A stretch of 64,000 nucleotides of DNA, taken from IMG/VR virus record IMGVR_UViG_3300042868_011620, positions 32,001-96,000 of that record. The stretch is one strand, 5' to 3'. Positions 26,300 to 56,831 of this stretch are shown in pieces. A program made the translations under genes and the position numbers. The stretch comes from a virus. Every line of letters starts with the position of its first letter. Position 1 is the stretch's first letter. Below the pieces are notes generated by a model that was not told the origin of the DNA, did not search any database, and saw only the letters and a program-made list of their open reading frames with translations.

Positions 26300-29200
26300 T
26301 CAACAAATAAACATTGGTGTGAATCCAATTGGAGCAGCAGCAGCTTCTACTGCCATCATGTCATAATACATGTGCATCATCCAGTTACCCAACACTAAAG
26401 CAGAGTAAGAATCCTTTCGCGCTCTGTTTGCGCCTTTTTGTTTTTTTAGATTTGAGGGTAAATCAAAACTTTGAGTTCCTTGAGTAGAGGTTGTTACTTG
26501 CACAAGAGCGCATTGAACTTTGATTAGTTCAATCATGTCTTTCTGATGCTCAATAAAATCAATCAACTTAGCCCCAGACGATAAGTCCTCTTCAATTTTG
26601 CTATACTTGATATCATCAATGCTAATCTTAGCAGTTTTTTGCCTAGAATAGTCATCATCAATTGCCATGCCCGCGAACCAAATTCTTCTATGATCAAAAG
26701 AACCCTGAAGCAATTCATTAGCATATCTAATCCAAAAAGAACTAGGCTTTCTCAAGTGAACTATCCTTTTGGTTGTTAAATTGTATTGACTTCTAGCCTC
26801 GCGCAAAGATTTGTCGTAATCTGCTATATTGTCAAAATCAAAATCAAAAGTGTCTAGTTTTAAACCGTCTCTTTTAAAAACTTCGCTCTCATTACATGCG
26901 CTCAAAAATTGAACGCCTCCATTGTAGTCTCCCACAACAGCTATAATATTAAAATTACTTAATAAATAGTGAAAATACTCGATGTGCTTTTTCAAGTTGG
27001 TTCCTGCCATAGCATAAGAGTGAACCACGGTTCCTCCTTTTTTAGATGGATTTAATTTGATTAATTGAATGGCAAAATCATCTGATCCATCACTCTCTGA
27101 CCATGAAGGGTCAAAACTAGCAATGTATTCAGCTTTGGATTCTCCCATAATTTCTACACTTTGCCCCTCTCCATCAACTACTGTGCATAAAGCCATTTTA
27201 CTAACTTTAAAATACCCCGAACTGTCGTCTGTAAACACACTGCCAAATTCTCGCTCAAATTGAGACTGACTCATTGTGGCTTTTGCTTGGCTGAGCAAGT
27301 TTTGATCATACAATTGTTGAGGAGCGCAGTCGTAACTAAAATGCATGATCACTCTGTGAGCGCCATCTTGTCGATCTGGATGCATAATGAGTCTTTCGTA
27401 CTCTTGATACAACTTATATAAGTATTCAAACTTGTAGCTTGCTGATGACAAACCAATAATCTTATTGCTTGGCCAGCGATAGCGATCTTCTTCTATCATT
27501 TCTCCCTTGGCTATTAATTTGCTCTCTAAATCGTGAAGCTGCTGTCTTTCTGTGGGATTTTCCACCACAGATAAGAATGGAAGAATAACTTCATTCAAAA
27601 TCTTTTCGGGCATCAAAAGAAGCTCATCAATAATCATTCTTTGAAAGCGAAAACCTCTTAATTTTTCACCATCTCCCAGTGGCAAAGCAGTGATTCTGCT
27701 TCTTCCAATTTCAATAATCCATTCATCATTTGTTTTGGAAATTCTAGTGATGCATTGAGCTAAAAATCCAGCTTTTGGACTTCGAGAGATTTCTTCAATT
27801 TTTCTAAAAATCATTTTCGACTGACGAAATGATTTACTAATAATTCCAATGTGAACTCCTTGATTTAACGTCGCATCTAAGATGGCAAACACTGCTGTAG
27901 AGAAGCTTTTACTCATGCCGCGTGAATTATGATGCACAATGCCGTTGCCCACGTAATTCTCTTCGGAATCAACTGTAATGTCTACTGTGGAAGTTTCGAT
28001 GGAAGTTATAGTTTCAATTTTTGAAAAATAAATATTTTCATTTTTTAAAACTAAAAGAGCCTGTCTATCTTTTTCATCTAAAAATTTTGCTGATAAGGCA
28101 GAGTCTAAACACATGTCTTTTCCAAAGTTTCCTCTCTCTCCAAATAATTTTTGCCACGTTTTATATTTTTTCTTTAGATAAGTTCCTAAATTTGGTACTA
28201 AATTTATTTGATATTTTCTACTTGGAAGATTTAAAACTTCTAATAAATTATCTTGTTTATGATCTGAAATGAATCCAATTCTATCGCTAAATTTTTGATG
28301 TCCACTTTTAGGTATTTTTAAATCATAGTATGGAACATCTTTATGAGATCCGCTATATCTAATAGAAGATTCTACTCCAAAATTATTAAGGAGCATTTTC
28401 ACCTGCCTCAACAATTCAATAGATGTATTCTTTAATCCTAATTTAACTGTTTTTGAATTAGAGTATCTCTTGTCTTTTAAAATGCTGCAATATCCATCTG
28501 CACTAAAAATTCCGCTAATTAAAGCTGCCATTTTTTGCTCATTAATTTGCAAGATAGAATCTGGTATAATTTTATTTTTTGCTTTTAAGGATCTGTCGAA
28601 TCCAATAGATTTTAACCAATCAATTAAGTCTTTACTAGAAATTCCCATTTCTAAAAATCCATTATCAGCTCTTGAGCGGCAAATAATTTTATTTTTAGGA
28701 AAATACTCTTTAGCTTTAGCTATTGTCATGTCAATAACTTTAGAATCTTCGGAGCACCAATGCATAGTATAGTCATCAAAATATCCATCTCCAATCATGT
28801 ATCCTAATAAAAAATACCAATAATCACAATCTTCAATGTTCATCTTTGGAGAGTTCTCCACTAATTGAGCGTCTCCCCAACAGTTCATGCCAAGTTTAAT
28901 TGGTAAGAAATCTTCAGTACTTAAAGTTTCAATCTCTTTAAATTCTAAATCTAAAGTTAAACTATTATAAATTAAAGTTTTATGACCAAGCTTTGCCTTA
29001 AAAGAATCGCCAGAAAATGTTTTAATATATAATCCTTTTTCATTTGGAGCATTGAATTTTTTATCAGTAACTAGATTTAATTTATTTCTAGATCTTACTC
29101 GTTCTCCAACATTCACATCTTTAATTTTCTTGAAACCACTTTCTGTTAAAACGTATTCGTTTTCATCTAGACACCAAATGCCCAAAAAGTAATCAGAGTC

Positions 29201-29407
29201 CATCATCGCTTTAATAGCCATGTGTTGAAAAGGAAACAAAGAGACTCCTGTCATGAATTCGGAAGTGAACGAGGGATTTTCTTTTAAAAATTTATATAAT
29301 AAAATTTTAGATTTTCTCTCGTCAATAAATCCTTTGGTATTTAGAATTTCTTCATTAATTCCTCTGAATTTATTGTGTAGTTTTTGATGTCCAGCTTCCC
29401 AACTCAT
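26300..29407 (-). CDS. terL: terminase large subunit containing an intein
   Basis: Walker A-like SRGMSKS, LRGFRF..IIDE Walker B, C-terminal RNase H-like FDP..SDDFA..KDSYSA. Confidence 0.9.
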   Translation of the reverse strand: MSWEAGHQKLHNKFRGINEEILNTKGFIDERKSKILLYKFLKENPSFTSEFMTGVSLFPFQHMAIKAMMDSDYFLGIWCLDENEYVLTESGFKKIKDVNVGERVRSRNKLNLVTDKKFNAPNEKGLYIKTFSGDSFKAKLGHKTLIYNSLTLDLEFKEIETLSTEDFLPIKLGMNCWGDAQLVENSPKMNIEDCDYWYFLLGYMIGDGYFDDYTMHWCSEDSKVIDMTIAKAKEYFPKNKIICRSRADNGFLEMGISSKDLIDWLKSIGFDRSLKAKNKIIPDSILQINEQKMAALISGIFSADGYCSILKDKRYSNSKTVKLGLKNTSIELLRQVKMLLNNFGVESSIRYSGSHKDVPYYDLKIPKSGHQKFSDRIGFISDHKQDNLLEVLNLPSRKYQINLVPNLGTYLKKKYKTWQKLFGERGNFGKDMCLDSALSAKFLDEKDRQALLVLKNENIYFSKIETITSIETSTVDITVDSEENYVGNGIVHHNSRGMSKSFSTAVFAILDATLNQGVHIGIISKSFRQSKMIFRKIEEISRSPKAGFLAQCITRISKTNDEWIIEIGRSRITALPLGDGEKLRGFRFQRMIIDELLLMPEKILNEVILPFLSVVENPTERQQLHDLESKLIAKGEMIEEDRYRWPSNKIIGLSSASYKFEYLYKLYQEYERLIMHPDRQDGAHRVIMHFSYDCAPQQLYDQNLLSQAKATMSQSQFEREFGSVFTDDSSGYFKVSKMALCTVVDGEGQSVEIMGESKAEYIASFDPSWSESDGSDDFAIQLIKLNPSKKGGTVVHSYAMAGTNLKKHIEYFHYLLSNFNIIAVVGDYNGGVQFLSACNESEVFKRDGLKLDTFDFDFDNIADYDKSLREARSQYNLTTKRIVHLRKPSSFWIRYANELLQGSFDHRRIWFAGMAIDDDYSRQKTAKISIDDIKYSKIEEDLSSGAKLIDFIEHQKDMIELIKVQCALVQVTTSTQGTQSFDLPSNLKKQKGANRARKDSYSALVLGNWMMHMYYDMMAVEAAAAPIGFTPMFIC
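27926..29173 (-). mobile_element. intein with LAGLIDADG homing endonuclease (416 aa)
   Basis: Starts CLDENEYV, ends GIVHHN followed by Ser; LLGYMIGDG and ISGIFSADG motifs. Confidence 0.92.
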
Positions 29408-31376: not shown

Positions 31377-32056
31377 TTGATGATGTCGTTTTGATAAATG
31401 ATTTCTTTCGCCTTGTTTTTGAGCATGTTCTTTAAATTTTTGATTTGCTTGTAGCCAGCTTTGCGGTTTTTTTCGTTAGTTTTATAACCCATGAAATTTG
31501 CCACATCTTCTTCTGATTTTTTTTCTAAAAAAAGCATCACATACACTGTGTAATGCTCTGCTGACAAAGCGTTTTTCATCATCTTGTTCAACTCTTCTAG
31601 TGATGAATCAAAATGAATGTAAGAGTCTTGCTTTTGGTCAACTTCTACGAGATGATTCTCAATAGAGAGAGGCATTTTTATTCCGTAGCCAATTTTTTTT
31701 AATTTTGACCATTTAGCATAGTCACTGCAAGATTCTTCTTGATTGCCAGATGAATTTTTAGCACACAGTGTGCCGCCCATGTTGAATTCGCAGTTCATGC
31801 AGGGACGCACATAGTTTGTGTAGTTGTTTCGGATAATATTTTTGATTTGATTGCTAGTGATTCGCGCAATCCATGGTTCAAGGGGTTTTGTTTCATCCCA
31901 CATGTGCCACTTTTTATAAATGTGCAATTTGACCATTTGAGATACATCCTCAAAATCAAACCAAGCAATAGCTTTTAGCTGCCATTTTTTTTGGAACTTG
32001 CTGACTACCGCATCAATTGTTGCATAGTGTTCAGTGTAGGAGTTGTTATTGGACAC
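31373..32056 (-). CDS. sigma70/ECF-like phage sigma factor
   Basis: DFEDVSQ..LHIYKKWHMWD...WIARI..NQIKN (region 2-like) and C-terminal HTH; GTG start at 32056 preferred over 32131. Confidence 0.7.
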   Translation of the reverse strand: MSNNNSYTEHYATIDAVVSKFQKKWQLKAIAWFDFEDVSQMVKLHIYKKWHMWDETKPLEPWIARITSNQIKNIIRNNYTNYVRPCMNCEFNMGGTLCAKNSSGNQEESCSDYAKWSKLKKIGYGIKMPLSIENHLVEVDQKQDSYIHFDSSLEELNKMMKNALSAEHYTVYVMLFLEKKSEEDVANFMGYKTNEKNRKAGYKQIKNLKNMLKNKAKEIIYQNDIIK

Positions 32057-50382: not shown

Positions 50383-50583
50383 TCAATTTGTTTTTCTAGA
50401 ATTCCAAGAGTCAAGTGCAGCTTGAAGATTGTGATGCCAAGGACCATTGCAAGCGCATTCTTCACACTCTACTCTGTATCCTCCTGGATAAGTGTGAAGC
50501 GAGATGGCTGGAGTTTCCTCGTCATTGATTTTGTCTTGATCAGTTATCCCGCAGAATGGACAGTGTTGTAATTTTTGACTCAT
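50383..50583 (-). CDS. Lar-like (restriction alleviation) zinc-finger protein
   Basis: LQHCPFCG...VECEEC..NGP...A...WNSR. Confidence 0.65.
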   Translation of the reverse strand: MSQKLQHCPFCGITDQDKINDEETPAISLHTYPGGYRVECEECACNGPWHHNLQAALDSWNSRKTN

Positions 50584-50586
50584 AAA

Positions 50587-50787
50587 TTATTCATTTTGTT
50601 TAAAGTAATCTATTGTAACATCCTCTACAAAATCGGCTACAGAATAATATACAGAATTCCTTACAGAATCATCTACAGAATCCACTACAAAACTCCATGC
50701 AGAATTCCATCCAGAAAATTTTATACAAGTATGTATACTATTTCTTAAAGAATCCCTTAAATCGTCGATGGCAGTATCATGTATCAT
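50587..50787 (-). CDS. array microprotein
   Basis: SVxxSV repeats, ends DYFKQNE. Confidence 0.75.
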   Translation of the reverse strand: MIHDTAIDDLRDSLRNSIHTCIKFSGWNSAWSFVVDSVDDSVRNSVYYSVADFVEDVTIDYFKQNE

Positions 50788-50969
50788 TTTGTTTTAAAGT
50801 AATCTTTTACAGAACTCCTTACAACATCCCATACAGAATACCTTACAGAATCCAATATAGAATCCGATACAGAAGCCTGTACGGAACATCTCACAGGCCA
50901 ATTTACAGAATAATATAAAGAATTCCTTACAGAACTCAATACGGCTTTATTAATGCTGGAGTTAATCAT
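50784..50969 (-). CDS. array microprotein
   Basis: Ends DYFKTK. Confidence 0.75.
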   Translation of the reverse strand: MINSSINKAVLSSVRNSLYYSVNWPVRCSVQASVSDSILDSVRYSVWDVVRSSVKDYFKTK

Positions 50970-50973
50970 TGCT

Positions 50974-51252
50974 TTATTTTATCAGAGTTCGCAATCTATG
51001 CAACAAGTATTTTATTGGTGAAATTGGTTTTGGTTCTTCGATTGCTGGACGAGCTAAGGCATAGCCGCCAATGCGTATCAGCAATAGCATATCATTGTGG
51101 TATTCCGCTGGAATGCCCGTAAAATCAAATGTTGCAGTTACTCCATAACCATGTGCGGTCACATAGTTTTTTATTTTTAGAATTGGCGGGATGTCCACAG
51201 TGAATGATGGATTAGAGTCGTATATCGATATGTTTTCGGCAGTTTCAGTCAT
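50974..51252 (-). CDS. unrelated hypothetical protein inserted in the array
   Basis: 92 aa, no SVxxSV or DYFK motif. Confidence 0.65.
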   Translation of the reverse strand: MTETAENISIYDSNPSFTVDIPPILKIKNYVTAHGYGVTATFDFTGIPAEYHNDMLLLIRIGGYALARPAIEEPKPISPIKYLLHRLRTLIK

Positions 51253-51437
51253 AATTTTTGTTTAAAGTAATCATTTACAGAAGCTTTTACAGAATCCGAT
51301 ACAGAATTCTTTACAGAATTCTTTACAGAATTATATACAAAAATCCTTACGGTCTCCCTCGCAGCTTTCATTACAGAATGCCATACAGCTTTCCTTACAG
51401 AATCCCATACAGCTTGACTAACGATAGAATCATTCAT
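51249..51437 (-). CDS. array microprotein
   Basis: Ends DYFKQKL. Confidence 0.75.
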   Translation of the reverse strand: MNDSIVSQAVWDSVRKAVWHSVMKAARETVRIFVYNSVKNSVKNSVSDSVKASVNDYFKQKL

Positions 51438-51645
51438 TTTGTTTAAAGTAATCTCTTATAGAGTCTCTTACAGTAGCTTTTATAAAATCGTTTACAGCGC
51501 TCTCTACAGAACGTACTACAGAATTATATACAGGACACCGTACAAACCCCTCTATATAATGCCATGCAGAGTCCCTTGCAGAATTTTCTACAGAATCCAT
51601 TACAGACTCCAATGTATTTTCATAAACGATAGAATAATTCATCAC
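51430..51645 (-). CDS. array microprotein
   Basis: Ends DYFKQNE. Confidence 0.75.
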   Translation of the reverse strand: MMNYSIVYENTLESVMDSVENSARDSAWHYIEGFVRCPVYNSVVRSVESAVNDFIKATVRDSIRDYFKQNE

Positions 51646-51710
51646 TTTATTTTATCAGAGTTCGTTTGAAGTAATTTTTTATCATTTTTAATTACTGAGT
51701 AGGATTGTAT

Positions 51711-51965
51711 CTATAGTAGCTCAAGGTCTTGTGTTGTCAAGGAGTTTTGTTCAAAGTAATCTCTTGCAGAACCCCACACATCATGCCTTAGAGAGGTCTC
51801 TACATCTTCCTCTATACAATCCCATCCAAAGTCCCATACAGATCTGTCTATGATCCTTGCAGAACGTACTATAGAATTATATACAGATTCTCCTATAGCA
51901 TCATAGGCAAATTTCCATACGTAATCATCGATATTAAAATTTTTAGTGTTGTTTTTATTATTCAT
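51711..51965 (-). CDS. array microprotein
   Basis: DYFEQN plus extension. Confidence 0.75.
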   Translation of the reverse strand: MNNKNNTKNFNIDDYVWKFAYDAIGESVYNSIVRSARIIDRSVWDFGWDCIEEDVETSLRHDVWGSARDYFEQNSLTTQDLELL

Positions 51966-52149
51966 TTTGTTTAAAGTGATCTACTACAAAATCATATACA
52001 GAATCTTTTATATTAGTCCAAACAGGATCTCCTACAGCACTCCTTGCATGAATCCTCGCAGGCAGCTGTATATTCTCTTTTATACAATTCCACACAGAAG
52101 CTTCTACATGATCATTCTTTATAGAGCACCAATATCTTATACTATTCAT
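51958..52149 (-). CDS. array microprotein
   Basis: Ends DHFKQNE. Confidence 0.75.
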   Translation of the reverse strand: MNSIRYWCSIKNDHVEASVWNCIKENIQLPARIHARSAVGDPVWTNIKDSVYDFVVDHFKQNE

Positions 52150-52375
52150 TTTTTAAGCGTTTTTGTTTGAAGTACTCTACTGTAGTGTCTCTTACAGAAC
52201 TCTCTACAGACCTTCCTATAGTTCGCCATACAGAATGCTCTACAGGATGCTCTACAGAATAGCTGACAGCATCCGCTATAGCATCCTCTACATAATCCTT
52301 TATCCCATCGTTTACAGAATTTCCTACAGAATGATATATAGAATACCACACGGCAATGCTTGTATTATTATTCAT
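52142..52375 (-). CDS. array microprotein
   Basis: EYFKQK. Confidence 0.75.
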   Translation of the reverse strand: MNNNTSIAVWYSIYHSVGNSVNDGIKDYVEDAIADAVSYSVEHPVEHSVWRTIGRSVESSVRDTTVEYFKQKRLKNE

Positions 52376-52556
52376 TTTGTTTAAAGTAATCTATTGTAGA
52401 ATCTATCACATAAATCTCTACCCAATTTACGACAGAAAACTTTGTAATATTCCATGCAGAAAGTACTATAGGGCCTCTTACAGAACTCCATATAGAACAC
52501 CATGCAGAATCTTCTACAGAAATCCACGCAGCTTTATAAACAGAGAAGTTATTCAT
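52368..52556 (-). CDS. array microprotein
   Basis: MNNFSV start, ends DYFKQNE. Confidence 0.72.
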   Translation of the reverse strand: MNNFSVYKAAWISVEDSAWCSIWSSVRGPIVLSAWNITKFSVVNWVEIYVIDSTIDYFKQNE

Positions 52557-52563
52557 TGCTTTA

Positions 52564-52779
52564 TTAATTTTCAAAGTAATCTCTTGCAGTACCGCTTGCA
52601 GCATCCCTTATTGAAACCTTTACGGAATTACCAATAACAATCCATATAGACTCATGTACAGAAACTCTTGCAGGATTTGTTACAAAATCGAATACAGACC
52701 TCCATACTAATCTTCTTACAGAATATGTAATGCTATAACCTATATCATCTTTTATAATATGCATTACTTTATTGTTCAT
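52564..52779 (-). CDS. array microprotein
   Basis: MNNKVM start, ends DYFEN. Confidence 0.72.
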   Translation of the reverse strand: MNNKVMHIIKDDIGYSITYSVRRLVWRSVFDFVTNPARVSVHESIWIVIGNSVKVSIRDAASGTARDYFEN

Positions 52780-52990
52780 TTTGTTTGAAGTAATCTCTCG
52801 TAGCATTTGCTATATCAAACCATACAGAAGCTCTTGCTTTAAAATCTCTTCCAGTAGTAAATCTTACAGTATAACTAGTAGAATTAAACAAAGAGTCCCA
52901 CATAGAAGCTCTAAAACTATTCCATATCGAAATTTCTACAGAATCCTGTACTTTTTTAGTGATAAAAAAATCATTCATTGGTTTATCCAA
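52769..52990 (-). CDS. array microprotein
   Basis: Ends DYFKQNEQ. Confidence 0.75.
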   Translation of the reverse strand: MDKPMNDFFITKKVQDSVEISIWNSFRASMWDSLFNSTSYTVRFTTGRDFKARASVWFDIANATRDYFKQNEQ

Positions 52991-53205
52991 TTTTGATTGA
53001 AGTAATTAATTGTACAGTTTGCTATAGGAATCTCTATAGACGGTTTTACCGTGTCCCACACAGCGTTCCTGATGTATTGACCAGCACCATTCCATACTCC
53101 ATCTCCTACAGATTCTTCTATAGTATCCACTATAGGATATGCCAAGGAATCAGATATTAATTTTGACGGACAATATCTCACATTCTCTCTTATAGTTTTA
53201 TTCAT
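52975..53205 (-). CDS. array microprotein
   Basis: NYFNQN. Confidence 0.75.
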   Translation of the reverse strand: MNKTIRENVRYCPSKLISDSLAYPIVDTIEESVGDGVWNGAGQYIRNAVWDTVKPSIEIPIANCTINYFNQNWINQ

Positions 53206-53395
53206 TTTTAAAGTAATCTTTAGTAGCCTCTCTTGTAAAATCCTGCATAAGAGAACCTATAGGGTCTTCCGAACCGTGTCCAATAGGATAAATTACAGTG
53301 AGCAACACACATACATGTACAACCTCTTCTACAGCGTGCCACACTTTAACTCTTAAACTTCGTTCTACAGTTTCGCTAATGGTAGAATCATTCAT
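53198..53395 (-). CDS. array microprotein
   Basis: Ends DYFKNE. Confidence 0.75.
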   Translation of the reverse strand: MNDSTISETVERSLRVKVWHAVEEVVHVCVLLTVIYPIGHGSEDPIGSLMQDFTREATKDYFKNE

Positions 53396-53600
53396 TTTGT
53401 TTAAAGCAATCTCTTGCAGAGTCTCTTACAGCCTTAAATACAGAATTAATTATTACGCTTCTTGTGCAATTATATACAGGCTTGTTTACAGAAACTCCTA
53501 CAGCCCTCCATATAGGATTTTGTATAGAACTTCTTATAGAACTCTCTACAGGAACTCTACAGAGATCATTCACAGCTTTATAAATAGTAGAATGATTCAT
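53388..53600 (-). CDS. array microprotein
   Basis: Ends DCFKQNE. Confidence 0.75.
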   Translation of the reverse strand: MNHSTIYKAVNDLCRVPVESSIRSSIQNPIWRAVGVSVNKPVYNCTRSVIINSVFKAVRDSARDCFKQNE

Positions 53601-53800
53601 TGTTTAAAGTAATTTTTTGCAGAACGATGTATAAAAATTGTAAAATGCTCTGTACAATTCTGCGTAAAACTACGCCACGCTGATTGTACAGCATCATTTC
53701 GCACAGAAGTAAACAAACAATGTCTCAGTGGTTTCCATATGTCGCTAATTACAGCTTGCTGCACAGAATCTCTTACAGAGGCTTTGATATTAGTATTCAT
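53597..53800 (-). CDS. array microprotein
   Basis: MNTNIK start, ends NYFKQ. Confidence 0.72.
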   Translation of the reverse strand: MNTNIKASVRDSVQQAVISDIWKPLRHCLFTSVRNDAVQSAWRSFTQNCTEHFTIFIHRSAKNYFKQ

Positions 53801-54002
53801 TTTTAAAGTAATCACTGGCGGCATCCTCCACTGCAAAACCGATTGAACTCCATGAAACATACCTCATGGATTCTCTCACCACAGCTCTAACATCTCCCCA
53901 TACTTGATTCCATATAGAATATGTTATAAAATTTCTTGCAACCTCGCCCGTGCATTCTCGCACATTTTTTTGAACAGCTTGGTTAATAGTGGATTTGTTC
54001 AT
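53790..54002 (-). CDS. array microprotein
   Basis: Ends DYFKNEY. Confidence 0.75.
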   Translation of the reverse strand: MNKSTINQAVQKNVRECTGEVARNFITYSIWNQVWGDVRAVVRESMRYVSWSSIGFAVEDAASDYFKNEY

Positions 54003-54223
54003 TTTTGTTTAAAGTAATCTAGCGCAGCATCATCTATATCAGACCATACATCATCTATTACTAAACTCCTTACACGATCTATTGTCCAATCTCTTAGATT
54101 GCCCCGCACAGAAGTTCTAATGTATCTCCATGTAGGTTGTCTTAGTTCCCCTAGCTTATATCCAGAATTTAATATTGAATTTGCAACATAAATAGTTTTA
54201 GGTTCACTTATTCTATTATTCAT
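53999..54223 (-). CDS. array microprotein
   Basis: Ends DYFKQK. Confidence 0.75.
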   Translation of the reverse strand: MNNRISEPKTIYVANSILNSGYKLGELRQPTWRYIRTSVRGNLRDWTIDRVRSLVIDDVWSDIDDAALDYFKQK

Positions 54224-54441
54224 TTTTGTTTAAAGTAATTAAAAAGAGAATCCTCTATAAAATTCTCTATCTCCATTAGCGTAACAACTGTGGGAGAGGC
54301 CACTATAAGTACTCTACAAGATTCTGCAACAGAATTCTTTACAAAACGATGAACAATATCCTCTATGGAACCCCACATTAAACTTCCCGCAGCAATTCTT
54401 GTGGAGTATTTAATGCTGCCTGATGATATTTTATTTTTCAT
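54220..54441 (-). CDS. array microprotein
   Basis: Ends NYFKQK. Confidence 0.75.
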   Translation of the reverse strand: MKNKISSGSIKYSTRIAAGSLMWGSIEDIVHRFVKNSVAESCRVLIVASPTVVTLMEIENFIEDSLFNYFKQK

Positions 54442-54649
54442 TTTTAAAAAAATCTTCTACAGAGTATTCTATCGAAAGATTTGCATAAGTTCCTATAGTA
54501 GTCCATACAGGGAACCTTACAGAATTCCATACAGATTCTCTTAGAGTAAAATGTGTACACTCTACTACAGAGCTATATACAGCATAACCTACGCGCCTTG
54601 TAACTATACCAGCAGTAGAGTGCTGCGTTGCAATAATAATATCACTCAT
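54431..54649 (-). CDS. array microprotein
   Basis: Ends DFFKNEK. Confidence 0.75.
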   Translation of the reverse strand: MSDIIIATQHSTAGIVTRRVGYAVYSSVVECTHFTLRESVWNSVRFPVWTTIGTYANLSIEYSVEDFFKNEK

Positions 54650-54906
54650 TTTTTTGTTTTAAAATAATTAATTGATGCGCTCTCTATAATTGTTTGAATG
54701 GGGCGATTCAAGCCATCATCTATTAAACCACGAACTGATGAATGCCACACATTATACTTAACAGAATCGTGAACAATGTCCTCTACGGGACGCAATGTAC
54801 AACGATGAACACAAAAGTAAACAGAAAAATAAACACAATTCCAAACAGATTTTCTAGTCGATTTATTAGTGGGAACGTTTAGGGATTTTAATGATTTTTT
54901 ATTCAT
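54646..54906 (-). CDS. array microprotein
   Basis: Ends NYFKTKK. Confidence 0.75.
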   Translation of the reverse strand: MNKKSLKSLNVPTNKSTRKSVWNCVYFSVYFCVHRCTLRPVEDIVHDSVKYNVWHSSVRGLIDDGLNRPIQTIIESASINYFKTKK

Positions 54907-55130
54907 TGTTTAAAATAATTATGAATTTCCTCGCTTACACAATTACTTGTGGAATCTCTTACAGAGCGCCCTATAGAATAAAAAACATTAATCCTTAAAA
55001 AATCCCTCATAAAACTTGATGAAACTTCCAATACCAGTTCATCCACAGTCTTCTCTACATTATCCCATACAGCATAATATGCTGAATCTACTGCGCGAAT
55101 CACTACATCTTCATCGGTTTTATCGTTCAT
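54903..55130 (-). CDS. array microprotein
   Basis: Ends NYFKQ. Confidence 0.75.
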   Translation of the reverse strand: MNDKTDEDVVIRAVDSAYYAVWDNVEKTVDELVLEVSSSFMRDFLRINVFYSIGRSVRDSTSNCVSEEIHNYFKQ

Positions 55131-55362
55131 TTTGTTTAAAGTAATCTTTTACATGAGGATTGATGGGAAGCTCTATAGAACTCCATACAGAATCCCAATA
55201 AGATTTTCTTTCGGAAATTCTTATAGAATCGAGTATAGATTCCCTTAGAGAGTAACCCGCAGAGTTGCATACAGAATGGTAAACAACTCTTTGAGCAGAA
55301 TTCCACATAGCGTGCTCTACACAATCCCACACAATTCCAGCAATAGCAGAGTCGTCTTTCAT
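55120..55362 (-). CDS. array microprotein
   Basis: Ends DYFKQNER. Confidence 0.75.
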   Translation of the reverse strand: MKDDSAIAGIVWDCVEHAMWNSAQRVVYHSVCNSAGYSLRESILDSIRISERKSYWDSVWSSIELPINPHVKDYFKQNER

Positions 55363-55556
55363 TTTGTTTTAAAGTAATCCTCTACAGATCGCTATACAGG
55401 AATATATACAGAAATATTTACAGAAATCTTTACAGAACCTAATATAGAACCTAATACAGAACCCCTTACAGAACTCCATATCGAATCCCATACAGGACTC
55501 CTTAAAGAATCAAATACAGACTTCGTCACATATTCATAAAGGGTAGAGTCATTCAT
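55359..55556 (-). pseudogene. array unit with in-frame TAG
   Basis: MNDSTLYEYV...IPV*RSVEDYFKTK; TAG at 55392-55394. Confidence 0.75.
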
Positions 55557-55755
55557 TTTGTTTAAAGTAATCGTAAGAGGCTTGACTAATGCAATTTTTT
55601 ATAATTTGTTCTGAATGCCAAGTGCTGTCCCATACTGGATGCCATACAGAAGTTGATACTCTATTAACAACACATTTCCATACAGGATTATCTACTGATT
55701 TTGTCATAGACATTTGTATAGAAAAAGTAGTCGTGTCACTTAATTTATCAATCAT
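55549..55755 (-). CDS. array microprotein
   Basis: Ends DYFKQNE. Confidence 0.75.
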   Translation of the reverse strand: MIDKLSDTTTFSIQMSMTKSVDNPVWKCVVNRVSTSVWHPVWDSTWHSEQIIKNCISQASYDYFKQNE

Positions 55756-55945
55756 TTTGTTTAAAGTAATCTTGTGTACACTGCATCGCAGTATTTCGCG
55801 CAGAATGAATCGTGCGATTCTGTATGTAATGCCCGACAGTATTCCATAGATGAATCTTTATAGAACGCCAAACAATTCTTTGAACAGGATTTTGCGAAGA
55901 ACCCCATAAAATATTTCGTGTAGTTTTGTTTATTTCGTCAGTCAT
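55748..55945 (-). CDS. array microprotein
   Basis: MTDEIN start, ends DYFKQND. Confidence 0.72.
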   Translation of the reverse strand: MTDEINKTTRNILWGSSQNPVQRIVWRSIKIHLWNTVGHYIQNRTIHSARNTAMQCTQDYFKQND

Positions 55946-56396
55946 TTTTAAAGTAATCAATTACAGAATCATTTACAGGCCGCTTTATACGAGTCTGCAC
56001 ATAAAACACCACAGGATTTTCTACACCGTTCCATACTTCAAACCTTACAGAAAAATCCATAGAATCCCAGAAAGAATAATCTATCAATGTCTTTAGACAA
56101 TCCACTGTCTTTATAGAATCCACCGTTGACTGGTTCATTCCATATTTTATTTTATTTGTTTTTATTTTATTTGTTTCAAAGTAATCTTCTATAGAAGCTT
56201 TTATAGGTATCCATGGTATACCTCTTATATCGTAAAGAGAACAAATGGACCCATACGCAGGATCTCCCACTGCATCTTCATTTTCCACATATTCTGTTAT
56301 AATATCCTCGACAGAGTTCCATACGCAATCTCTTGCGAAAGCACATGAATAGTTTTCGATAGAAAATTCTATAAGTTTATTTAATTTATCGTTCAT
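55938..56396 (-). CDS. fusion of two array units
   Basis: Internal DYFETNK...MNQST and terminal DYFKND. Confidence 0.72.
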   Translation of the reverse strand: MNDKLNKLIEFSIENYSCAFARDCVWNSVEDIITEYVENEDAVGDPAYGSICSLYDIRGIPWIPIKASIEDYFETNKIKTNKIKYGMNQSTVDSIKTVDCLKTLIDYSFWDSMDFSVRFEVWNGVENPVVFYVQTRIKRPVNDSVIDYFKND

Positions 56397-56604
56397 TTTT
56401 TTGTTCAAAGTAATCAACAACAGCATCTCCCGCACTATACAACACTTTAAGACTTGCGGATTCTCCTGCGTAAAAATCCCATACAAAATTTCTCGCAGAA
56501 TATGCTACAGACTGAGTGATGGCTTTCCAAGCGGGATAATCTCTACCAGCATCTGTTACTGAATACCAAACGTCACGGTCTACGTATTTATTAATTGTAT
56601 TCAT
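56386..56604 (-). CDS. array microprotein
   Basis: Ends DYFEQKNER. Confidence 0.75.
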   Translation of the reverse strand: MNTINKYVDRDVWYSVTDAGRDYPAWKAITQSVAYSARNFVWDFYAGESASLKVLYSAGDAVVDYFEQKNER

Positions 56605-56783
56605 TTTTGTTTGAAGTAGTCAACGACAGAAGCTTGTACAGGATTACTCACAGTGCGACTGATGGATATGGAAATATCATCCCATGTAGCATAATCTACA
56701 TACTTCCATATGATATAACCTACATTCTTCCAAACAGTAAACTTCGCAGAATTTAAAATTTTTCTCACATCGCCGATATTCAT
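56601..56783 (-). CDS. array microprotein (first unit)
   Basis: Ends DYFKQK. Confidence 0.75.
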   Translation of the reverse strand: MNIGDVRKILNSAKFTVWKNVGYIIWKYVDYATWDDISISISRTVSNPVQASVVDYFKQK

Positions 56784-56793
56784 TTTATATAAT

Positions 56794-56831
56794 AAAAAAG
56801 GCCCCCTGAAGTTTGATGTCTTCAGAGGGCC
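56794..56831 (-). terminator. intrinsic terminator between the DUF6745-like operon and the array
   Basis: GGCCCTCTGAAG...CTTCAGGGGGCC-TTTTTT. Confidence 0.8.

Follow-up and report, generated by a model that had tools for sequence, protein, structure and literature searches.

An array of tetrad-repeat microprotein genes behind a repeat-less DUF6745 gene in an uncultured lake-water phage

The stretch of DNA described here, referred to as the window, comprises 64,000 nucleotides (positions 32,001 to 96,000) of the IMG/VR virus record IMGVR_UViG_3300042868_011620. The window belongs to a phage, as indicated by a large terminase gene, three tRNA genes, and matches to PHROG families, and this phage is present in 24 lake-water metagenome runs. 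On the minus strand it carries a tandem array of 28 small units, each encoding a four-residue-periodic microprotein, which is placed behind one gene assigned to the DUF6745 family (the core) and a small partner gene. By sequence comparison, the units are shown to be detached and diversified copies of a tetrad tract that other DUF6745 proteins carry internally, and the DUF6745 gene of this phage clade is shown to have lost that tract. The explanation favoured here, which we consider fairly likely, is that the units form an intact multigene family whose detached tract helices serve one constant DUF6745 core in trans, probably in counter-defence. An earlier account made from the letters of the window and its translated open reading frames (ORFs), without database searches and called here the sequence-only reading, had described the array accurately, but left out that its units are the DUF6745 repeat lying behind a repeat-less DUF6745 gene and a partner. 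What distinguishes this system from known phage tetrapeptide-repeat proteins and DUF6745 proteins is the detachment of the repeat into a large, fast-changing gene library; an in-protein repeat appears to have been turned, in this clade, into ~12 to ~40 separate genes.

Relationship of the array to DUF6745 proteins

A search of 1.84 billion representative proteins with a profile of 27 units, which the sequence-only reading had itself proposed, gave 1821 matches at E ≤ 1e-3, of which 296 had E ≤ 1e-10, and led to DUF6745 proteins. The best matches (top E-values 8e-44 to 1e-14) are proteins of 400–570 amino acids (aa) that align to the profile in several stretches. When ten proteins were picked from the top 12 matches and scanned, nine carried the Pfam domain DUF6745 at the C-terminus. 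These proteins, called cis proteins below, consist in order of an N-terminal domain with the motif LTPEQ..W..IGL.T, a long tract of the type SVWDSVRDSV, a YF-type motif, and the DUF6745 domain. The array units share with the tracts the profile similarity, the S-V-x-x register, and the C-terminal YF motif. Profile scores can be inflated by periodic low-complexity sequence; synteny provides independent support.

The cis architecture is found in loci of Muribaculaceae, Mycobacterium, Planctomycetes, and Alpha- and Gammaproteobacteria, with tracts of 76–252 aa. Examples, all with the annotation "hypothetical protein", come from a Muribaculaceae metagenome-assembled genome (MAG) (L114), from Mycobacterium parascrofulaceum (L106), from a MAG of Granulosicoccaceae (L103), and from the Mycobacterium abscessus prophage prophiGD102-1 (gene 38). 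The cis tracts have a very regular sequence (W/R/G, D/A) whether GC content is high or low, and because GC content varies widely among these loci, the tetrad is a feature of the protein level, which points to selection on the protein. Like the genes of the window, the cis proteins have the N-terminal domain, the YF motif after the tract, the DUF6745 domain, and an adjacent partner; unlike in the window, their tract is in cis, very regular, and present once per gene, in place of 28 diversified separate copies. Cellular DUF6745 loci span Proteobacteria, Acidobacteria, Actinobacteria, Planctomycetes, Chloroflexi, Bacteroidota, bacteria of the candidate phyla radiation, and archaea. Of 34 bacterial or archaeal loci searched with a profile of five phage copies of the partner, 14 have a partner-like ORF next to DUF6745 and one more is ambiguous; many of the loci without it run into a contig end. 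Phage-type genes, assigned by Pfam, lie beside the module in three of the five cellular loci inspected, in the form of a terminase with an SPP1 portal, a lambda-type integrase arm-binding domain, and an HNH endonuclease. A word-indexed protein search with a 72-unit profile returned only 27 small proteins, all unnamed; its sensitivity for short sequences of such diversity is low and it provides no measure of rarity.

Deposited phages with the module are the Ma-LMM01 group of Microcystis phages and the M. abscessus prophage, in all cases annotated as hypothetical. As in the window, Ma-LMM01, a cultured phage, and its MaMV relatives carry a DUF6745-like gene (gp174) side by side with a partner gene (gp175, GEVTGHxH...QQEY...VAD). 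In contrast to the window, the linker of gp174 is non-tetrad and no array of mini-genes is annotated alongside; the relationship is distant, gp174 being 31% identical over 38% of a cis DUF6745 query. Searches for literature on DUF6745, PF20530, the repeat strings, or arrays of this kind found none, subscription journals being outside the search.

The core protein of the window scores 25.7 bits against Pfam PF20530, for which the gathering cut-off is 27, and its orthologs in two relatives of 173 kb (G001) and 120 kb (G002) score 29.1 and 27.4 bits, above the cut-off. It is composed of an N-terminal LTPEQ..W..IG domain, a short linker to the motif EEYFVQG, and the DUF6745 domain; where the tetrad tract would be expected, a 13-residue linker lies between ...HYLKAG and EEYFVQG. 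The core has 191 homologs, the best 120 of which are all 283–354 aa long, that is, repeat-less, and most of these 120 carry a precomputed PF20530.4 assignment. The adjacent partner has the two motifs, E(V/T)TGHxH and QxEY..V.D, by which the small second gene of the DUF6745 module is recognized, and is also present beside the core in G001 and in three further loci (L097, L100, and L101). The order of core, partner, and array recurs in G001, G002, and L097, and G001 and G002 have one DUF6745 gene each. The core, the partner, a unit, and the unrelated 92-aa gene that interrupts the array have no match in PADLOC or NCBIfam, and the 92-aa gene matched no family at all. In the ESM Atlas, the core had no match above 0.78, and the partner matched only viral clusters without a name.

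Within the array, the ORF listing and stop-to-stop translation give a near-gapless tiling by 27 ORF-equivalents amounting to 28 units (Table 1), just as the sequence-only reading had counted. They are made up of 25 intact single units of 60–86 aa, one fusion of two units, and one unit with an amber codon, the only interruption being the 92-aa gene. The four-residue periodicity ascribed to the unit cores was reproduced: anchored on the YF motif, a gapless register of S / V-I / x / x extends over 40 residues in the 73 units compared, which come from three phages, with mean entropies of 2.56, 2.11, 3.44, and 3.39 bits for the four tetrad phases. The cores do differ at most positions, as had also been stated, since column identity averages 22% across the units, with M1 and the F of the YF motif as the sole invariant positions. 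The common C-terminal end is (D/N)YFKQ, and the MN leader attributed to every unit is found in 21 of the 28 and is missing from the remainder.

At the DNA level, Tandem Repeats Finder reports periods of 12, 24, and 36 nt in the array and a 15-nt tandem repeat at 56145–56176, in the linker of the fused units 3 and 4. Codon use in the units departs from the background for valine (GTA 61% vs 21%), serine (TCT 58% vs 36%), and isoleucine (ATA 54% vs 17%), a bias that indicates descent from an amplified 12-nt unit. The isoelectric points of the units span 4.4–9.9, with a net positive charge at pH 7 in 12 of 25; DNA mimicry was rejected as an explanation because the charge is mixed and not strongly acidic. 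The units also fall outside the pentapeptide-repeat class of anti-restriction proteins, as their period is four and their predicted fold is a single α-helix and not a β-helix.

Successive genes are joined by stop/start overlaps of 4, 8, 11, or 14 nt at 22 of the 28 listed junctions, the 92-aa gene being counted in the list. A 22-nt sequence that the sequence-only reading had placed at most junctions occurs ten times with up to three mismatches, always inside the array and against a chance expectation of 0.02, and a less strict 12-nt core, GAYTAYTTYRAR, is found 19 times; the repeat is genuine, and its extent had been somewhat overstated, because the remaining junctions differ by small indels. 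The unit start contexts are A-rich and lack a Shine-Dalgarno sequence, and since other genes of the phage likewise have A-rich leaders without Shine-Dalgarno sequences, the unit starts look ordinary for this genome. The arrays of three phages, at 1817, 1972, and 1470 codons, are free of in-frame stops, the first figure being that of 25 ORFs of the window with the amber unit left out. The other two frames of the window units contain 205 and 142 stops, each in 1792 codons (8–11%), a comparison that is partly circular as the units were selected as ORFs. Programmed −1 frameshifting at the junction sequence TTTAAAC was rejected, because the frame of the upstream unit divides the heptamer as TTT AAA C, a phase that does not suit X_XXY_YYZ.

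Table 1. Features of the array and of the genes next to it (positions in the window; aa, amino acids; G001, the 173-kb relative)
Feature	Position	Strand	Remarks
Repeat-less DUF6745 core, 319 aa	57206..58165	-	PF20530 E 8.4e-6; phrog_31813
Small His-motif partner, 112 aa	56845..57183	-	motifs SEVTGNHH, IQQEYDY..VAD; phrog_27831 weak, E 0.0024
Terminator-like hairpin	56800..56831	-	12-bp stem, 8 GC pairs, T run; between partner and unit 1, 17 nt before unit 1 ATG
Whole array	50587..56783	-	28 tetrad-repeat units in 27 ORF-equivalents and one foreign gene
Unit 1, 60 aa	56601..56783	-	
Unit 2, 72 aa	56386..56604	-	
Units 3 and 4, fused in one frame	55938..56396	-	first ends EDYFETNKIKTNKIKYG; second begins MNQ at 56138
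Unit 5, 65 aa	55748..55945	-	
Unit 6, 68 aa	55549..55755	-	G001 ortholog: 91% over 54-aa core form, 85% over 68 codons
Unit 7, amber	55359..55556	-	single in-frame TAG, codon 55 (55392-55394); most regular 12-nt periodicity
Unit 8, 80 aa	55120..55362	-	population-variant cluster
Unit 9, 75 aa	54903..55130	-	
Unit 10, 86 aa	54646..54906	-	
Unit 11, 72 aa	54431..54649	-	
Unit 12, 73 aa	54220..54441	-	
Unit 13, 74 aa	53999..54223	-	ortholog is first unit of G001 array (61%)
Unit 14, 70 aa	53790..54002	-	
Unit 15, 67 aa	53597..53800	-	
Unit 16, 70 aa	53388..53600	-	population-variant cluster
Unit 17, 65 aa	53198..53395	-	
Unit 18, 76 aa	52975..53205	-	63% to a G001 unit
Unit 19, 69 aa	52769..52978	-	
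Unit 20, 71 aa	52564..52779	-	
Unit 21, 62 aa	52368..52556	-	
Unit 22, 77 aa	52142..52375	-	62% to a G001 unit
Unit 23, 63 aa	51958..52149	-	
Unit 24, 84 aa	51711..51965	-	
12-codon remnant ORF	51647..51685	-	MIKNYFKRTLIK; NYFK end only; ~20 nt after it also at 3′ end of 92-aa gene
Unit 25, 70 aa	51430..51642	-	90% identity to a G001 unit
Unit 26, 62 aa	51249..51437	-	unit used for folding and docking
Unrelated 92-aa gene	50974..51252	-	ATGA overlap couples it to array; 78% identity to G001 gene, dN/dS 0.32
Unit 27, 61 aa	50784..50969	-	
Unit 28, 66 aa	50587..50787	-	
Lar-like restriction-alleviation gene	50383..50583	-	directly after array, not a unit; PF14354 E 2.3e-7; phrog_599 E 3.7e-12

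The alternation of a short conserved sequence with variable segments of similar length recalls a CRISPR array, as had been remarked from the sequence, and this likeness is confined to the layout. In the array, unlike in CRISPR, the conserved part codes for the end of a protein, a stop, and the next start, and the variable parts are open frames with protein-level periodicity. A dedicated machine, either a CRISPR-like nucleic-acid array or a diversity-generating retroelement, is on these grounds extremely improbable. The retroelement is rejected because the reverse transcriptase family PF00078 is absent from two near-complete relatives, G001 (100% complete) and G002 (93%), in a search in which control genomes were positive.

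In pilE/pilS and vlsE, antigenic variation proceeds by cassette conversion, in which an array of variable segments lies beside a constant gene able to receive them. By the same principle, the units could be silent donor cassettes for gene conversion into the DUF6745 gene, between its N-terminal domain and the EEYF motif, so as to produce cis-tract variants. The position of a variable array directly downstream of a tract-less gene fits such a scheme, as does the terminal YF motif of the units, which is the same as that after the cis tracts. We nevertheless regard it as very unlikely. In contrast to pilS and vlsE segments, the units have their own starts and stops, each with an ATG in a normal start context and most coupled by overlap, and no common 5′ homology is obvious. 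No converted core with an inserted tract is seen in the best 120 of the 191 core relatives, and contigs of four lake runs span the core gene without such a joint, contigs being liable to drop rare variants.

Turnover of the array and selection on its units

The arrays of related phages differ in size and content. In G001, considered a complete genome, the profile matches 39 times and at least 28 units are clean; in G002 it matches 47 times, some of these in other frames, and at least 20 units are clean; the array of L097 has ~12 units. Over the core and partner, the DNA of the window and G001 is 78% identical, whereas only about six to seven of 25 window units have a G001 ortholog at ≥48% identity, and their order is changed. 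The diversified library proposed by the sequence-only reading is borne out by these figures, and the contrary case of identical array content in all relatives does not apply, as the content is largely different. Array content turns over much faster than the flanking genes.

Comparison of the arrays also reveals chimeric and internally duplicated units. Contigs of four other lake samples keep the unit order of the window and carry dense clusters of variants confined to single units. In unit 16, 15 codons vary, of which 10 are missense, four are synonymous, and one is an unreliable stop-codon change; in unit 8, seven codons vary nonsynonymously and two synonymously. None of the three variants in the inserted 92-aa gene is nonsynonymous. 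A low-depth contig of another lake sample joins 50972 to 51256, an exact removal of this gene. The changed order, the chimeric units, the unit-confined variant clusters, and this joint are hints of the recombination that had been postulated as the source of the diversity. Other contig joints (skips of 701, 357, and 66 nt and a 90-nt back-step) were not counted as evidence because of low depth and periodic sequence.

Some further observations concern the ends and interruptions of such arrays. The 92-aa gene, together with the region at 51647–51700, where a second copy of its 3′ end (~20 nt) follows the 12-codon remnant, resembles an insertion/deletion scar. In L100 (10403–11157), where the partner is 50% identical, core and partner are followed by three ORFs of 73–90 aa without the SV tetrad, ending HFAP, DFFPK, and SFKIK, which may be highly diverged units; the distant pair of L101 (partner also 50% identical) is followed by one unit-like ORF. 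The end of the G001 array adjoins opposite-strand ORFs of 350 and 389 aa (L093, 2073–3125 and 5643–6812, plus strand), in which a likeness to homing endonucleases was judged by eye only.

The ratio of nonsynonymous to synonymous substitution rates (dN/dS), estimated by the Nei-Gojobori method (NG86), ranges from 0.46 to 3.4 for 14 pairs of units. The comparison genes have values of 0.03 (partner, 93% identical in G001), 0.18 (a neighbouring 163-aa gene), and 0.32 (the inserted gene). Resolved by tetrad phase, dN/dS of the units is 1.03 at S/V positions and 0.87 at x positions. The sequence-only reading had proposed computing dN/dS per helix face; the values by phase do not tell the docking face from the exposed one, and with values of ~1, positive selection cannot be claimed. 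On the other hand, the joint probability that all seven ortholog pairs stay open under random substitution at the observed divergence is ~1e-4. Stop codons are purged, and the integrity of the ORFs is selected.

These results bear on the view that the array is a near-neutral, self-propagating expansion, driven by slippage and unequal recombination at the junction, whose mini-ORFs are tolerated and drift. Such an expansion would explain dN/dS values of ~1 overall and in both tetrad phases, a codon-level periodicity that leads back to an amplified 12-nt unit, the fast turnover of content, and the presence of an amber unit, a fused pair, and a remnant of 12 codons. It is improbable, in our judgement, in view of the purged stops and the uninterrupted frames in all three phages. 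The tetrad register and the YF end are retained in 73 units, arrays of ~12 to ~40 units recur behind core and partner in G001, G002, and L097, and the docking described in the following section is confidently modelled.

Predicted docking and possible role

The AlphaFold2 model of the core has a predicted local distance difference test (pLDDT) value of 92.1, and comparison with solved folds gave nothing usable (best E 0.07 with Foldseek against the PDB; best Z 4.0 with VIA-align over 48,161 chains). Unit 26, modelled with an alignment of 72 units, is predicted to be one continuous helix over residues 2–61 (pLDDT 94.8), in agreement with the helical units that had been anticipated. For the complex of core and unit 26, the interface score ipSAE was 0.85, 0.85, and 0.86, the best of three controls being 0.00; the mark used for this score is reached by 58 of 80 solved complexes and by two of 110 mismatched pairs. 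At least 76% of the contacts agree between runs, and the docking partner has a pLDDT of at least 81. Because the core resembles no solved fold, this result is not the memory of a solved complex.

In the modelled interface, all 28 of the S- and V-phase residues within unit residues 5–58 contact the core, compared with 12 of 26 x-phase residues. The third tetrad position is predicted to be about two-thirds contacted (9/13) and the fourth mostly exposed (3/13). The interface includes Y57 and F58 of the unit and the invariant W20 of the core, and the contact pattern agrees with the conservation of the 73 units by phase. The model supports docking of the unit in trans on the repeat-less core through the S/V stripe and the YF end.

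Under the explanation favoured here, each unit gene would encode one long amphipathic helix of S-V/I-x-x tetrads, and one constant core, with its partner, could carry any of ~27 interchangeable helices to give many variants of one complex. New units would arise via 12-nt slippage, duplication, and recombination at the common stop/start junction. The complex would act in phage-host or phage-prophage conflict, and probably in counter-defence, by analogy and by context, the latter consisting of the Lar-like gene after the array, the location in a region of small genes, and the phage-type neighbours at cellular loci.

The analogy is with tetrapeptide-repeat proteins, which are widespread in phages and prophages and of which gp54 of mycobacteriophage Tweety is the only studied example. 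Tweety gp54, together with Che8 gp57 and PMC gp51, is non-essential and has a central run of 15–48 tetrapeptide repeats (PMC2884959), with 40–48 in gp54 itself. The first two positions of its repeat are fixed and small, the third is G, W, or Q, and the pattern suggests selection for variation; defence-escape mutants of gp54 alter the repeat number, which tunes counter-defence against Phrann gp29/gp30 and the MichelleMyBell prophage defences (PMC9262239, PMC8549241, PMC2884959). Unlike the units of the array, the AAxx repeats of gp54 lie in cis and vary in copy number, with no library of separate genes. The VR2 region of bbp36 in Bordetella phage BMP-1, a non-essential gene of unknown role, is reported to have 9–20 copies of a 24-bp element (cited in PMC2884959); it resembles the array as a short repeat of variable copy number in a phage gene, and differs from it in being in cis.

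Several points weigh against the favoured explanation. The cis tracts are very regular and of widely varied length, a poor obvious fit to a sequence-specific recognition surface. The dN/dS values of ~1 in both tetrad phases are as compatible with relaxed constraint as with diversifying selection, and at codon level the docking face shows no greater constraint. Docking was modelled with one unit only, using a core alignment in which five rows had a cis tract. The strict period of four does not match a straight α-helix of 3.6 residues per turn, so that a continuous S/V stripe needs supercoiling or wrapping. One unit contains an amber codon and two are fused, and in the window a terminator-like hairpin parts the partner gene from unit 1, for which no equivalent was found at the same place in G001. 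None of the 24 lake-water runs carrying the phage is an RNA run. On the repeat tracts of the cis proteins, PADLOC and NCBIfam gave off-target matches only, namely to REase_II (E 3e-5 and 5.6e-6) and to Ser-rich adhesin models, the latter scoring far under their cut-offs. Tweety gp54, finally, is an analogue and not a homolog of the core, having no Pfam DUF6745 match at E ≤ 0.01, no Pfam family, and an hhalign probability of 0.14% (E 0.42) against the core alignment.

Free helices could also work as decoys that poison the tract-binding grooves of DUF6745 systems in prophages or co-infecting phages, or other host targets, in which case the library would cover many target variants. DUF6745 and its partner occur in prophage-like regions of diverse bacteria, and hosts may therefore carry such systems; the units keep the conserved docking features, and free helices could compete with cis tracts of up to 252 aa, should those tracts bind grooves in trans. 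This is rather unlikely, as core and partner are under strong purifying selection beside every array seen, and as a unit was modelled onto the phage's own core while the controls gave no signal.

For the family serving its own core, a more specific form, which we advance only tentatively, is combinatorial recognition, in which core and partner would be armed in trans with any of dozens of helices, all of them expressed from a translationally coupled array whose junctions allow exchange between phages. If true, the phage would be equipped in advance with a set of proteins to meet host or prophage defences that vary, and Tweety gp54 would represent the cis version of the same principle. More generally, a constant core with a library of helices, if confirmed, would represent a new viral strategy for encoding varied binding surfaces and a compact scaffold for the display of helical peptides. 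The arrays offer a natural dissection of a constant part (core, partner, S/V stripe, and YF end) and a variable part, and, for an uncharacterised family with as many profile matches as the units have, a binding hypothesis that can be tested directly.

Surroundings of the array in the window

Neither the array (by megablast) nor the core (by tblastn) had a match among 50,697 deposited phage records. The terminase is less than 30% identical to that of any deposited phage, and the clade is therefore considered uncultured. Matches to sigma-70-type promoters number 32, compared with 32.3 in shuffled sequences; as there is no excess, no promoter is claimed. Window genes are generally without a Shine-Dalgarno sequence, and a motif (A/T)GTGTAAA lies ~10–25 nt upstream of several structural-gene starts (2713, 14203, 16322, 19933, 26245, 33268, and 34205), where it may be a late-promoter or leader element.

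The large terminase gene (26300–29407, minus strand) encodes 1035 aa. Since many relatives match residues 1–1034 within only ~1850 nt, this copy carries an insertion of ~400 aa; residues 79–345 match PHROGs annotated as ribonucleotide reductase or helicase, and the insertion looks like an intein or an inserted mobile domain. The three tRNA genes (Arg-TCT, Leu-TAA, and Met-CAT) are located on the minus strand between 46153 and 48068.

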